NCBI GenBank assembly: GCA_963762565.1
Contig: CAVXLD010000012.1
Coordinates: 448,001-512,000 of the forward strand
DNA: 64,000 nucleotides
Origin: an uncultured Verrucomicrobiae bacterium
GTDB taxonomy: Bacteria; Verrucomicrobiota; Verrucomicrobiia; Chthoniobacterales; JAFAMB01
Reading direction: 5' to 3'
Shown here: positions 7,819-55,168 of the stretch, one piece after another
Layout: the number at the start of each line of letters is the position of its first letter
Position numbering within the stretch: position 1 is the first letter of the stretch
Made by a program: the position numbers and the translations under genes
The notes under the pieces: model-generated
Seen by the model: the letters and a program-made list of their open reading frames with translations, nothing else
Told to the model about the DNA's origin: nothing
The model's database searches: none

Positions 7819-8028
7819 GTGGAGCGCGCCTTGCTTGCAAGGCCGAAGGGATCGCCACCCGTGGAGCGCGCCTTGCTTGCAAGGCCGAAGGGATCGCCAC
7901 CCGTGGAGCGCGCCTTGCTTGCAAGGCCGAAGGGGTCGCCACCCGTGGAGCGCGCCTTGCTTGCAAGGCCGAAGGGGTCGCCACCCGTGGAGCGCGCCTT
8001 GCTTGCAAGGCCGAAGGGGTCGCCACCC
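7819..8028 (+). repeat. Tandem array of five 42-bp units (26-bp hairpin core GTGGAGCGCGCCTTGCTTGCAAGGCC plus a near-constant 16-bp linker)
   Basis: Units start at 7819, 7861, 7903, 7945 and 7987; no unique spacers. Confidence 0.95.
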
Positions 8029-16162: not shown

Positions 16163-16404
16163 GTGGAGCGTTGCCTCGCTTGCGAGGCCGGAGGGGTCGC
16201 CACCCGTGGAGCGTTGCCTCGCTTGCGAGGCCGGAGGGGTCGCCACCCGTGGAGCGTTGCCTCGCTTGCGAGGCCGGAGGGGTCGCCACCCGTGGAGCGC
16301 TGCCTCGCTTGCGAGGCCGGAGGGGTCGCCACCCGTGGAGCGCTGCCTCGCTTGCGAGGCCGGAGGGGTCGCCACCCGTGGAGCGTTTCCTCGCTTGCGA
16401 GGCC
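16163..16404 (+). repeat. Tandem array of six 43-bp units (27-bp core GTGGAGCGYTGCCTCGCTTGCGAGGCC plus a 16-bp linker)
   Basis: Units start at 16163, 16206, 16249, 16292, 16335 and 16378. Confidence 0.95.
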
Positions 16405-52667: not shown

Positions 52668-54263
52668 TCACTTCTTTTGCAACAGGCTGAGTTCAACCTC
52701 TCTCGATGGTATCGGCGGAAAAAGAAAGGCAATTGCCGGGAACCGTCCCGTGGGAAAGACAAGGGCGGGGAGAGAGTAGTGATGACTCCTTAAAAGCTTG
52801 TAACCTCGACTTTCGATCTCGCCAGATGTCGTACCAAACCATTTCGGCCCAATTTTACTGTCCCAAAACACTATTGTCCCTGCCGGCCCTTTCTCTAAAA
52901 CCGAAAGTAGCTTCTCTCGATTCGTTGCCGGAGGACTATCTTTTAGGTTCCGGTTAAGATCGATACACATCCGGCCGTTGCTCCAGATTAGACCGGGCAG
53001 CGACGAATGCTGCGTTTGTAGCCAGTTCGCCATATCATCGATCGCAACTGCGTCACGCGCCCAAACCATCGAGTCCATGTAATGAACACTCTGCAGAATG
53101 GAAAAAATGATGACTACCCACCCGGCGACTGCCGCAAACGGGCGCAAGCTCTTCACTGAAAAAATTGTGTGCCAACCTTGCAGGGTTAACACAGCAATAG
53201 CCGCAGCAACCGAAACCATGTAACGCGGAAATCCTGCTTCCCCAAAAAGCCCGTACTTAACAAAAACCGAGTGTAACAAAAACAATACCAAGAAAACGGA
53301 CGTGATTAGTATCCAAGAGAGGGAACGGAATCCTCGTACCAAACCGACAATGAAGGGAACGATTAAAATGACACCCGCAAACTCTTGGCTACGCTGCGCG
53401 TAACTAAGAAACGTACCATGCCCATACATATCGGTGTGCCAAGTAGCGGGCCAATTATGCAAGATAAAGAGCGAATCACCGGTTAAGAGCAAAGCAGCCA
53501 ACCACCAGAGTACGACCCCGCTGGCGAGGATAACGATCGATCCCAACCGACGAAGTATCCCTTGGAGCGCTGCCTCGCTCTTGTCCTCCGACTTGTCCGA
53601 CGAAGCCTTGGCGAAGTCGGAAGCTTTAGCGAAGGAGGATGCGAGACCGTCGTGGCGTTCCCCGTCCGCCAAACACCGAACGCCGACTTGTCCTCCGAAG
53701 CCTTGGCGAAGGAGGAACTCCAACCGCCAAACGTCAAACGCCACCCATAAACCCCAAAGAAGACAGACAAATACTCCTTCCGGCCGGGCGAGAGGAAGAA
53801 GCGATGCAACTAACATCCCCGATTTTACCCGACCGCTAATATGACACCGAAGCGCGATCACTAGAAGTAGAGCAAACAACGGCTCGGTGAACAGACTCGA
53901 GTAAAGTTCGAAGAATGTCTGTTGACCAAGGAGCAGCGGTATTACCAGCCAAGCGCGCGACAAGTCTAGATCAGAAGCCAGCCGATAAGTCTGCCAGGCA
54001 ACGGCCACGCTGATAGCCAGAGCAAAGAATCGCGCTGGGACAAAACCGAGCGCGGCCACCGGTGCAAAAAGCGTGGTAAACAACGGACGCCCCCAGACAT
54101 CAACAAAATAAAAATGATCAACCCAGGCCGTACGAGCCATCAAGAAATGGTAATCGACATCTTGTTCCGGTGACCCTGGGAAAAGAAAAATCAACAGAAC
54201 ACCGATGACCGCCATGAATACCACGGCAATCAGCGCACGCCGCGAATCATCGACTTGTTGCAT
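52668..54263 (-). CDS. Polytopic membrane protein, possibly a GT-C fold glycosyltransferase, with an in-frame repeat insertion
   Basis: Many TM segments; EQD, TEPLF, ARPEG and PRY motifs; repeat-derived segment at about 53563-53743. Confidence 0.7.
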   Translation of the reverse strand: MQQVDDSRRALIAVVFMAVIGVLLIFLFPGSPEQDVDYHFLMARTAWVDHFYFVDVWGRPLFTTLFAPVAALGFVPARFFALAISVAVAWQTYRLASDLDLSRAWLVIPLLLGQQTFFELYSSLFTEPLFALLLVIALRCHISGRVKSGMLVASLLPLARPEGVFVCLLWGLWVAFDVWRLEFLLRQGFGGQVGVRCLADGERHDGLASSFAKASDFAKASSDKSEDKSEAALQGILRRLGSIVILASGVVLWWLAALLLTGDSLFILHNWPATWHTDMYGHGTFLSYAQRSQEFAGVILIVPFIVGLVRGFRSLSWILITSVFLVLFLLHSVFVKYGLFGEAGFPRYMVSVAAAIAVLTLQGWHTIFSVKSLRPFAAVAGWVVIIFSILQSVHYMDSMVWARDAVAIDDMANWLQTQHSSLPGLIWSNGRMCIDLNRNLKDSPPATNREKLLSVLEKGPAGTIVFWDSKIGPKWFGTTSGEIESRGYKLLRSHHYSLPALVFPTGRFPAIAFLFPPIPSREVELSLLQKK

Positions 54264-54567: not shown

Positions 54568-54900
54568 CTAACCAATCAACGCACGTAACTTGGCTCGGAC
54601 TTCGGCCAACTCAGCCGATGTTACCCGGCCTTTTGGCTGCGCCTTACCTTCGCGCCAATCGAGACTCTTCACCTGATCGGCTAGCACAACGCTGGAAGGC
54701 AAACCACCGATCTGGACCTCGAATGGATAACCCTTAATGTGGGTTGTTAGCGGACAACAGATTAGCAGACCAGCTTTCCGGTTGTACGCCGCCGGGCTAA
54801 GTACGAGCGCCGGACGATGCCCAGCCTGTTCGTAACCGGCCTGTGGCGTAAAATTCAGCCAGACGATCTCGCCGGCATCGGGCACGTATCCTCGCGCCAT
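54568..54900 (-). CDS. mazF: MazF/PemK endoribonuclease toxin
   Basis: YVPDAGEIVWLNFTPQAGYEQAGHRPALVLSP; DQVKSLDW. Confidence 0.95.
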   Translation of the reverse strand: MARGYVPDAGEIVWLNFTPQAGYEQAGHRPALVLSPAAYNRKAGLLICCPLTTHIKGYPFEVQIGGLPSSVVLADQVKSLDWREGKAQPKGRVTSAELAEVRAKLRALIG

Positions 54901-55142
54901 TACCAGGATTCTTCCCCTTGCGGAGACCCGGAATCGACCGCTTCATGCAAATTCTTCGGAGTTATCCGATCCACTAGCTCGTCTAGATCGTATCCCTTAG
55001 ACCGCACGGGTTTGAGAATGATCTTGCTTCCCTTTTCGGAAATATCGACGAGATCTTCGATTCGGATATCGGCAGCCTCCAAAATCGTTGCCGGAATTCG
55101 CACCGCCGCGCTATTACCCCATTTTTTTACCGTCGTTCTCAT
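54900..55142 (-). CDS. mazE: MazE antitoxin
   Basis: VKKWGNSAAVRIP; LDELVDRITPKNLH; GEESW. Confidence 0.93.
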   Translation of the reverse strand: MRTTVKKWGNSAAVRIPATILEAADIRIEDLVDISEKGSKIILKPVRSKGYDLDELVDRITPKNLHEAVDSGSPQGEESW

Positions 55143-55145
55143 AGC

Positions 55146-55168
55146 GAGTATATACATCGTATATACTC
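55146..55168. promoter_or_regulatory. mazEF operator palindrome
   Basis: Perfect IR GAGTATATAC-ATC-GTATATACTC, 3 bp upstream of the mazE ATG. Confidence 0.75.

Follow-up and report, generated by a model that had tools for sequence, protein, structure and literature searches.

The stretch of DNA analysed here (the window) comprises 64,000 nucleotides of an uncultured Verrucomicrobiae bacterium (GenBank assembly GCA_963762565.1, contig CAVXLD010000012.1, positions 448,001 to 512,000), or G000:C12:448001-512000 in the labels used below. G000 is the genome of this stretch (6.1 Mb in 15 contigs, 54% G+C), G001 onward are genomes of relatives, L numbers are loci in relatives and C numbers are contigs. 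On the minus strand, at 52668-54263, lies an open reading frame (ORF) that stays open across all 531 aa (reading ...LEFLLRQGFGGQVGVRCLADGERHDGLASSFAKASDFAKASSDKSEDKSEAALQ...) and is predicted to encode a polytopic membrane protein with a GT-C glycosyltransferase-like fold. Between 53563 and 53745 this host gene carries, in frame, a hairpin core split by a 30-nt hairpin module that is itself split by a second module, followed by a third module within a decayed heptamer array. The repeats recur throughout the genome, and the insert was probably formed by their layered insertion into one loop of the protein.

The layers are described as read on the plus strand. The left arm of the core, which resembles a repetitive extragenic palindrome (REP), is TGGAGCGCTGCCTCGCT at 53563-53579 (translated on the minus strand as ..SEAALQ), and the right arm is TGCGAGACC at 53640-53648, where a G-to-A change weakens the stem. 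Between the two arms are the left part of the outer module, CTTGTCCTCCGA at 53580-53591, and its right part, AGCTTTAGCGAAGGAGGA at 53622-53639, both recognised in the sequence and by repeat search; when joined, they form an intact 30-nt module. The inner module, CTTGTCCGACGAAGCCTTGGCGAAGTCGGA at 53592-53621, enters the loop of the outer module at CCGA^AG. The third module, CTTGTCCTCCGAAGCCTTGGCGAAGGAGGA at 53687-53716, lies 47 nt away, within about seven decayed CGCCAAA heptamers (53666-53686 to its left and 53717-53745 to its right, detected as direct repeat D4). Every stem consists of six perfect base pairs, TCCTCC/GGAGGA for the outer module and the third and TCCGAC/GTCGGA for the inner one, and a repeat search of the locus recovers units of 12 nt and 18-23 nt. 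A previous model-made reading of the bare letters (the sequence-only reading) had proposed a core split by a module, that module split again with compensatory stem changes, and a third copy in the heptamer tract; all of this was reproduced base for base. On the minus strand the nested pair is translated as SSFAKASDFAKASSDKSEDK and the third module, in a different frame, as LLRQGFGGQV. The third module, which was the copy examined, is free of stops in six of six frames, and the composite in four of six. No Rfam family reached the gathering score across the whole window, and none was found at an expected value (E) of 10 or better in 53300-54000, indicating that the element is not a described RNA family.

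The host protein has about 9-10 hydrophobic segments, no Pfam match at E of 0.1 or better and no NCBIfam match above cut-off. When an AlphaFold model built from eight orthologues (predicted template modelling score, 0.73) was compared with the PDB by Foldseek, the top 20 ranks were all GT-C enzymes, the best being ALG12 (TMq 0.55), and ALG9, STT3/PglB, EmbC and ArnT were among the other matches. By this model the protein would share the GT-C polytopic fold of the ALG, STT3, ArnT and Emb enzymes; at the level of sequence family, no assignment to PMT_2 or PMT was obtained, and the PMT_2/PMT clusters among the Atlas look-alikes of the protein serve as a lead only. The insert (residues 184-234) is placed between predicted helices 163-187 and 228-261, in agreement with the proposal that the open frame gains the LLRQGFGGQV peptide between transmembrane helices. 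Residues 188-227 have a predicted local distance difference test score below 50 in the same model, and the insert is predicted to be a disordered loop joining the two helices.

The ratio of nonsynonymous to synonymous substitution rates (dN/dS) between G000 and either G002 or G003 falls in the range 0.10-0.18 both for the 169-170 codons that precede the insert and for the 284 that follow it (dS 0.60-0.80; 79-83% nucleotide identity of the coding flanks), indicating that the host gene is under purifying selection on both flanks of the insert. Together with the full-length open frame and the end-to-end alignment of orthologues, this low dN/dS argues, by the available tests, against a pseudogene, a possibility that the sequence-only reading had raised. 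We infer that the insert is translated.

Among 40 relatives searched, ten gave matches to the host protein at E of 2.5e-70 or better, and each of these full orthologue matches was split in two pieces, skipping query residues about 182-235. Weaker matches were limited to the repeat-encoded peptide (G004, G005 and G024) or to part of the N-terminal region (G038, 6.9e-8). The segment from PLARPEG to (I/L)TGD is 107 aa long in G000, 77 aa in G002, 80 aa in G003 and 58-62 aa in five distant orthologues, giving the G000 loop an excess of 27-30 aa over its two congeners and of 45-49 aa over the distant orthologues. A gap of roughly 60 aa had been expected; the gap is present, and in neither comparison does its size quite reach 60.

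Empty sites were found for separate layers of the insert. The orthologue of G002 reads GGCCTCGCA^AGCGAGGCAGCGCTCCA; here the same core occupies the matching position, 15-18 nt ahead of the conserved CGGTTGGGATCG, and is empty. The orthologue of G003 reads GGAGT^TCGGCGTTCGG (GGAGT^TCGGCG), which is the heptamer tract minus exactly the 30-nt third module, and where G000 has the core it carries an unrelated palindrome, GGATCGCG-AGGA-CGCGATCC (L003, G003:C298). The three congeners thus hold three different repeat contents in the same loop, and the uninterrupted core of G002 and the module-free tract of G003 agree with the split-core reading. No flanking duplication was detected in three base-exact comparisons of empty and filled sites. 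The G003 palindrome resembles another abundant repeat of G000, with the ends ggagggatcgcg ... cgcgcgccctcc. The G002 orthologue (L002, G002:C177) has two further repeat-like stretches, added in frame and absent from G000, a block of about 14-20 aa (..ATANGREWETRMDAN..) in the C-terminal domain and a C-terminal extension of about 60 aa rich in words of the RMDTNE/IDTNK type.

The module is a repeat beyond chance. Its 15-nt loop word, with up to two mismatches allowed, occurs seven times in the window against 0.21 expected, and a strict degenerate 25-mer found 135 sites in G000 and none when reversed as a control. With an nhmmer profile made from 132 seed copies, 152, 170 and 199 matches were obtained in the 6.1-Mb genome at E<1e-3, E<1e-2 and E<1, respectively. 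The majority of copies are 31 nt long and G+C-rich and have a bulged G (CCTGYCGCGMC-GTAGGCYTKGCGRAG-KCGGR), while the in-ORF copies at the present locus, of a 30-nt form, lack the bulge. When the six stem pairs were scored over 127 unique copies, 96% of cells held a standard pair, a share that drops to 30-48% if the partner is slid; two stem positions covary (TA 63 and CG 48; CG 94 and AT 29), and eight loop positions are invariant or nearly so. The loop consensus is G-W-A-G-S-C-Y-T-K-G-C-G-R-A-G, in a unit of 30 nt or 10 codons; its first four positions, inside the stem, are G-(T 101/127)-A-G, and the copies in the host ORF have GAAG.

As to the location of modules relative to genes, for 76 of the 170 matches the surrounding stop-to-stop frame is 150 codons or longer; the majority of these matches are within 60 codons of the upstream stop and therefore likely 5' of real starts. 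Only seven of the 170, including two in the host gene, have at least 100 open codons on either side. One of the in-ORF modules is carried by a 1976-codon ORF on C5, for which the G001 orthologue (84% aa identity) shows an exact 30-nt gap, GGCGA^GCAT, and an 814-codon ORF on C14 contains a core-module-core block of 39-43 aa that is missing from G001, G006, G010 and G011. Of three additional in-ORF candidates, C3:429916, C1:843520 and C3:521797, the last two look non-genic. The region C3:521797-521927 contains four head-to-tail 33-nt modules in a 257-codon open frame (..PPPQRPTARQV.. repeated), which is probably not a real gene. Outside G000, where the strict 25-nt word has its 135 sites, one to three sites were found in seven of 200 other Verrucomicrobiota genomes, belonging to several families; from counts this low one can conclude only that the module is either old or exchanged.

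The core has the form GCCTCGC-AA-GCGAGGC followed by (A)GCGCTCCA, and 420 copies with the bare two-base loop are present in G000. Of about 445 cores in all, 23 are filled by one module, which sits between the two loop A's and has one constant orientation relative to the core; the host-gene core, filled with 62 nt, is the sole case in G000 of a reversed module. Cores also build tandem arrays and inverted doublets, the latter about 150 nt apart. Two tandem arrays of five to six empty cores, spaced by about 43 nt, are located elsewhere in the window at 7828-8011 and 16173-16403 (C12:455828-456011 and 464173-464403).

Recursive nesting of this kind had been regarded as unusual in the sequence-only reading. 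This part of the claim did not hold, as nesting is the rule in the module family rather than an oddity. In G000, 30-nt modules split 31-nt modules at CCGT^AG at C6:47949 and C11:86856, with similar splits at C7:402754 and C1:145914, and in G015 (L023) a module is likewise split by a module at CCGT^AG. The whole composite, consisting of the core, a reversed outer module and an inner TCCGAC module, was detected at non-orthologous loci of congeners, at 97% identity over 87 nt in G003:C750, 91% in G002:C196, 83% in G004:C442 and 80% in G002:C229. The nested pair alone has matches in G005, G012, G015, G016, G021 and G024, including three further genera of the family. Altogether, 15 of the 41 genomes searched have a match, and all belong to one family; G000 itself contains the composite only once, its other matches being partial. 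At G003:C750 (L013) and G004:C442 (L011) a TetR-like ORF takes its C-terminal tail of roughly 35 residues from the composite, read in the same frame, and the G004 copy has an extra 12-nt left unit. Nests with different outer stems, TCCACC/GGTGGA (L033) and TCCGCC (L023), occur in other genera, which shows independent recurrence of nesting as well; the same heptamers, ACGCCAA, flank a module in another genus (L025).

The host-gene copy and G003:C750 share the reversed orientation, the inner and outer stem types and the core variant GAGACC, while the orthologous core of G002 has GAGGCC. With the composite 97% alike between species whose coding flanks are 79-83% identical, and with these shared peculiarities, the nest appears to have been made once, earlier or elsewhere.

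Variation at the insert was also observed in populations, for which the data are soil-metagenome contigs and unitigs. Two unitigs come from a second sample of the source study: one covers 53300-53621 with no other letters and the other 53594-54000 with two; they overlap by 28 nt inside the inner module, so that the arrangement is supported from both flanks. Contigs about 97% identical lack 30 nt or a net 90 nt at the insert. A 388-nt contig from one other study aligns over 53645-53987, differing in 10 of 313 letters and showing, somewhere in that interval, a 30-letter gap of the size of the third module. In two further studies contigs join 53580 to 53715, skipping 134 nt, through 44 other letters, a net loss of 90 nt or 3 x 30, the size of three modules. 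Other contigs hold the composite or the nested pair in different contexts.

These observations can be accommodated by an account of layered repeat insertion that we consider, as a whole, quite probable, a judgement that concerns the repeats and not the enzyme that might move them. The loop between two transmembrane helices of a GT-C-type glycosyltransferase would have been colonised in layers (a heptamer array, a REP-like hairpin core and 30-nt hairpin modules) by non-coding repeat families that crowd the genome. The module would be a discrete 30-nt insertion unit, with a conserved loop and a 6-bp stem kept by compensatory change, that enters without target-site duplication immediately 3' of C-S-S-W (CCGA^, CCGT^ and CGCA^ are seen). 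Its insertion sites are often the loops of other hairpins, either core or module, and nesting would follow from this. The core with its reversed nested pair most likely arrived ready-made, via transposition or gene conversion between core copies, and the nest was probably not built stepwise in the host gene; the third module is a separate, recent insertion. Selection would then leave only frame-preserving, stop-free insertions in a tolerant loop, by which the protein would gain about 30 disordered residues relative to its congeners and probably still work. Within this account, the membership in repeat families, the empty sites, the absence of duplication, the site of nesting and the purifying selection on the two flanks are direct observations.

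The nest might instead have been assembled in place in the G000 lineage, by entry of the core, then of a module into its loop, then of a module into that module. The bare core of G002 at the same position, the entry of modules into core loops and module loops elsewhere, and the presence of only partial additional matches in G000, without a second composite, are all in agreement with such a course. The host-gene copy and the 97% identical composite of G003, however, have three derived peculiarities in common: the reversed module, as opposed to the 23 same-orientation filled cores of G000, the arrangement of inner TCCGAC and outer TCCTCC stems with AGCTTTAGC, and the GAGACC core-arm variant. The reversed TCCGAC-in-TCCTCC nest recurs in G002 and G004, and since independent assembly at each place is hard to credit, construction in place is regarded as unlikely. 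A purely local origin, in which 12-nt and 18-nt units of a low-complexity loop slipped or were duplicated in tandem and no mobile unit was inserted, is very unlikely. It could explain why the left (12 nt) and right (18 nt) parts are direct repeats, why relatives show left:right counts of 3:2, 4:2 and 2:1, and why every unit size is a multiple of three. It does not explain why empty sites of exactly 30 nt exist at unrelated positions, in G003 for the third module and in G001 for the C5 gene, nor why inner and outer copies differ by paired compensatory stem changes and in loop letters. Separate duplication of the halves, moreover, would not keep the arms matched in nested order, and the 2:1 array of G002:C286 looks like a former nest that has lost the stretch between its two right halves.

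A selected function of the loop, be it surface variability or the tuning of expression by an mRNA structure, rather than tolerated junk, would agree with the preservation of frame in all variants seen (differences of 30, 60 and 90 nt), with the common frame of the composite in the TetR-like tails of G003 and G004, and with a repeat more conserved than the synonymous sites of the host gene. High conservation is, however, expected from the repeats' own copying constraints. The loop content differs among all three congeners, with an unrelated palindrome in G003; the region is predicted to be disordered; the folding energy is unremarkable; and the repeat sequences lie mostly outside long ORFs, as the seven of 170 modules with long open flanks illustrate. 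We therefore judge such a function to be highly improbable. The locus comes from a 15-contig assembly from soil, in which short-read unitigs break within the inner module, and repeats could have been collapsed or misjoined in this metagenome-assembled genome. Such an artefact is scarcely credible in view of the second-sample unitigs, which reach 53621 from the left and extend from 53594 to 54000 on the right, and of the join, which keeps the 531-aa frame collinear with orthologues. Four runs, all from the same study as the likely source sample, hold 0.73-0.97 of sampled words.

Several points weigh against layered insertion, or at least against parts of it. At the core, G002 could have precisely lost 60 nt, in which case no gain in G000 would be required. 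By a rough estimate from reasoning, about 7% of random 30-mers would be open in six frames, so the openness of the module is only mildly unlikely. The 86-nt composite, folded as DNA, is no stabler than its shuffles (-13.7 kcal/mol, z = -0.24), and our claim is limited to conserved pairing, not strong structure. As to expression, the listed RNA runs hold only 0.04 of sampled words and speak neither for nor against it. Among 13 arrays in 20 relatives' loci, five have unequal left:right halves by motif count (3:2, 4:2, 2:1 and two of 1:2), indicating that slippage also reshapes nests once formed; at least one of the 1:2 arrays is a motif artefact, and the 2:1 array is the G002:C286 deletion form. 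The G(T/A)AG of the module lies in its loop, not at the hairpin end or foot as in classical REPs. Finally, no mobilising enzyme could be tied to the modules among the Y1_Tnp and GxxExxY/PDDEXK_3 genes of G000. For a REP-associated tyrosine transposase (RAYT) partner, in a search that covered G000, only one of 12 Y1_Tnp matches has a module within 1.5 kb; one of the 12 has an adjacent downstream core array, and one other has a single core about 1 kb away. Only one of 11 GxxExxY/PDDEXK_3 genes is bracketed by modules.

That single PDDEXK_3 gene sits between two inverted module-bearing elements. Of the inverted module pairs examined as gene brackets, one surrounds this same GxxExxY gene and the other two enclose ORFs without evident link to mobility. 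The 11 PDDEXK_3 genes include C11:64714-65516, and the majority of the 11 are bracketed by inverted short tandem arrays of the CGCAGATTA, CACAGAG, ATCACAAAG and CGCAAAGAA types, and arrays of these kinds also flank gene-less modules elsewhere in G000. Directly upstream of the host gene, at 54568-55157 on the minus strand of the window, are two small overlapping ORFs of 110 and 85 aa, which, by eye, we take to resemble a MazF/PemK-type toxin and an AbrB/MazE-type antitoxin.

The left flanks of inserted modules are CCGA (the third and inner modules), GCGA (C5), CCGT (C6, C11 and G015) and CGCA/CGCT (cores), and the heptamer unit CGCCGAA contains a site of this kind. Compared with targets of the IS200/IS605 type, the insertions show no duplication and these same left flanks, over few sites and with a loose motif. 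Insertion without duplication beside a short motif, together with the preference for hairpin loops, fits a single-strand mechanism, and transposition of single-stranded DNA by HUH/Y1 enzymes has been proposed for REPs and shown for IS200/IS605 (PMC3333891, PMC6006769 and PMC3733652). By analogy, the modules may possibly move through single-stranded DNA by means of an HUH/Y1-type or other structure-specific enzyme, though we would put this at somewhat below an even chance, no gene being tied to the modules. A wider proposal, which we find doubtful, is that the 30-nt module would be among the smallest self-propagating DNA units, aimed by structure at single-stranded hairpin loops including its own, moved by an enzyme other than a neighbouring RAYT, and seeding, by its stop-free 10-codon design, new disordered protein loops across a family of soil Verrucomicrobiota.

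The locus is an unusually clean record of the entry of very small hairpin repeats into genes: three genes show empty and filled sites to the exact base, nesting occurs at a fixed site, and variants at strain level are present in soil metagenomes. Mobility of REP-like elements in cells is still poorly shown, and a 30-nt unit whose target is defined, and which some natural alleles have and others lack, would be a tractable case. The locus further illustrates that membrane enzymes gain disordered loops in repeat-rich free-living bacteria as well as in reduced endosymbionts. In word searches of open-access text no description of this module family came up, which does not establish its absence from print.

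Among known systems, miniature inverted-repeat transposable elements have terminal inverted repeats, target-site duplication and a length of 70-300 bp, unlike the 30-nt module without duplicated flanks. The small dispersed repeats of Nostocaceae, reportedly described by Elhai and co-workers in 2008, are said to be very small (21-27 nt) mobile repeats, one targeting the short palindrome HIP1, with nested copies; they differ from the module in phylum and sequence. REPINs (Bertels and Rainey 2011, PMC3116915) are resembled by the G000 core in its inverted doublets about 150 nt apart and its tandem arrays; the RAYT association that defines the REPIN/RAYT system was found in G000 for neither core nor module.

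The insertions of Rickettsia palindromic elements (RPEs) are the classic in-frame palindromic insertions (PMC10969869 and PMC3733652). As with these elements, palindromic repeats are found here in frame in unrelated genes (three in this study) and absent from the orthologues, the proteins being thought still functional. RPEs, in contrast, are about 150 bp long (about 100-150 bp was the size used in the comparison) and, as summarised in those sources, encode a conserved peptide, while the module is 30 nt long and is read, from gene to gene, in at least three ways that differ in frame or orientation (SSFAKAS.., LLRQGFGGQ and DLSSIALAKE). The hosts of RPEs are reduced intracellular bacteria, and the present one lives freely in soil and has a genome of 6 Mb.

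In Di Nocera et al. 2013 (PMC3733652), REPs wholly inside ORFs are reported for several species, with most in the verrucomicrobium O. terrae; they encode 20-30 aa, clusters reach 43-82 aa, and some REP families are lodged in small target palindromes of which hundreds of copies are also found empty (T. roseum GTAG-23). The present repeats resemble these GTAG/CGTC REPs in being short palindromes of 20-40 nt at high copy number (a module of 30-31 nt with 170 matches, a core with 420 empty copies), in their stem subfamilies with compensatory changes (TA/CG and CG/AT covariation, 96% paired), and in having copies within ORFs and within palindromes that also exist empty. Unlike the REPs as presented there, one module enters another at a fixed position in its loop, and no RAYT/Y1 gene of G000 is flanked by modules (one of 12 near a module, one of 12 with a core array). 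Since translated in-gene repeats and repeats inside palindromes are already in print, the gain from this locus is one of detail and mechanism, not principle, and the closest known counterparts of the present insert are the REPs inside ORFs, as reported in Verrucomicrobia, and the RPEs of Rickettsia.

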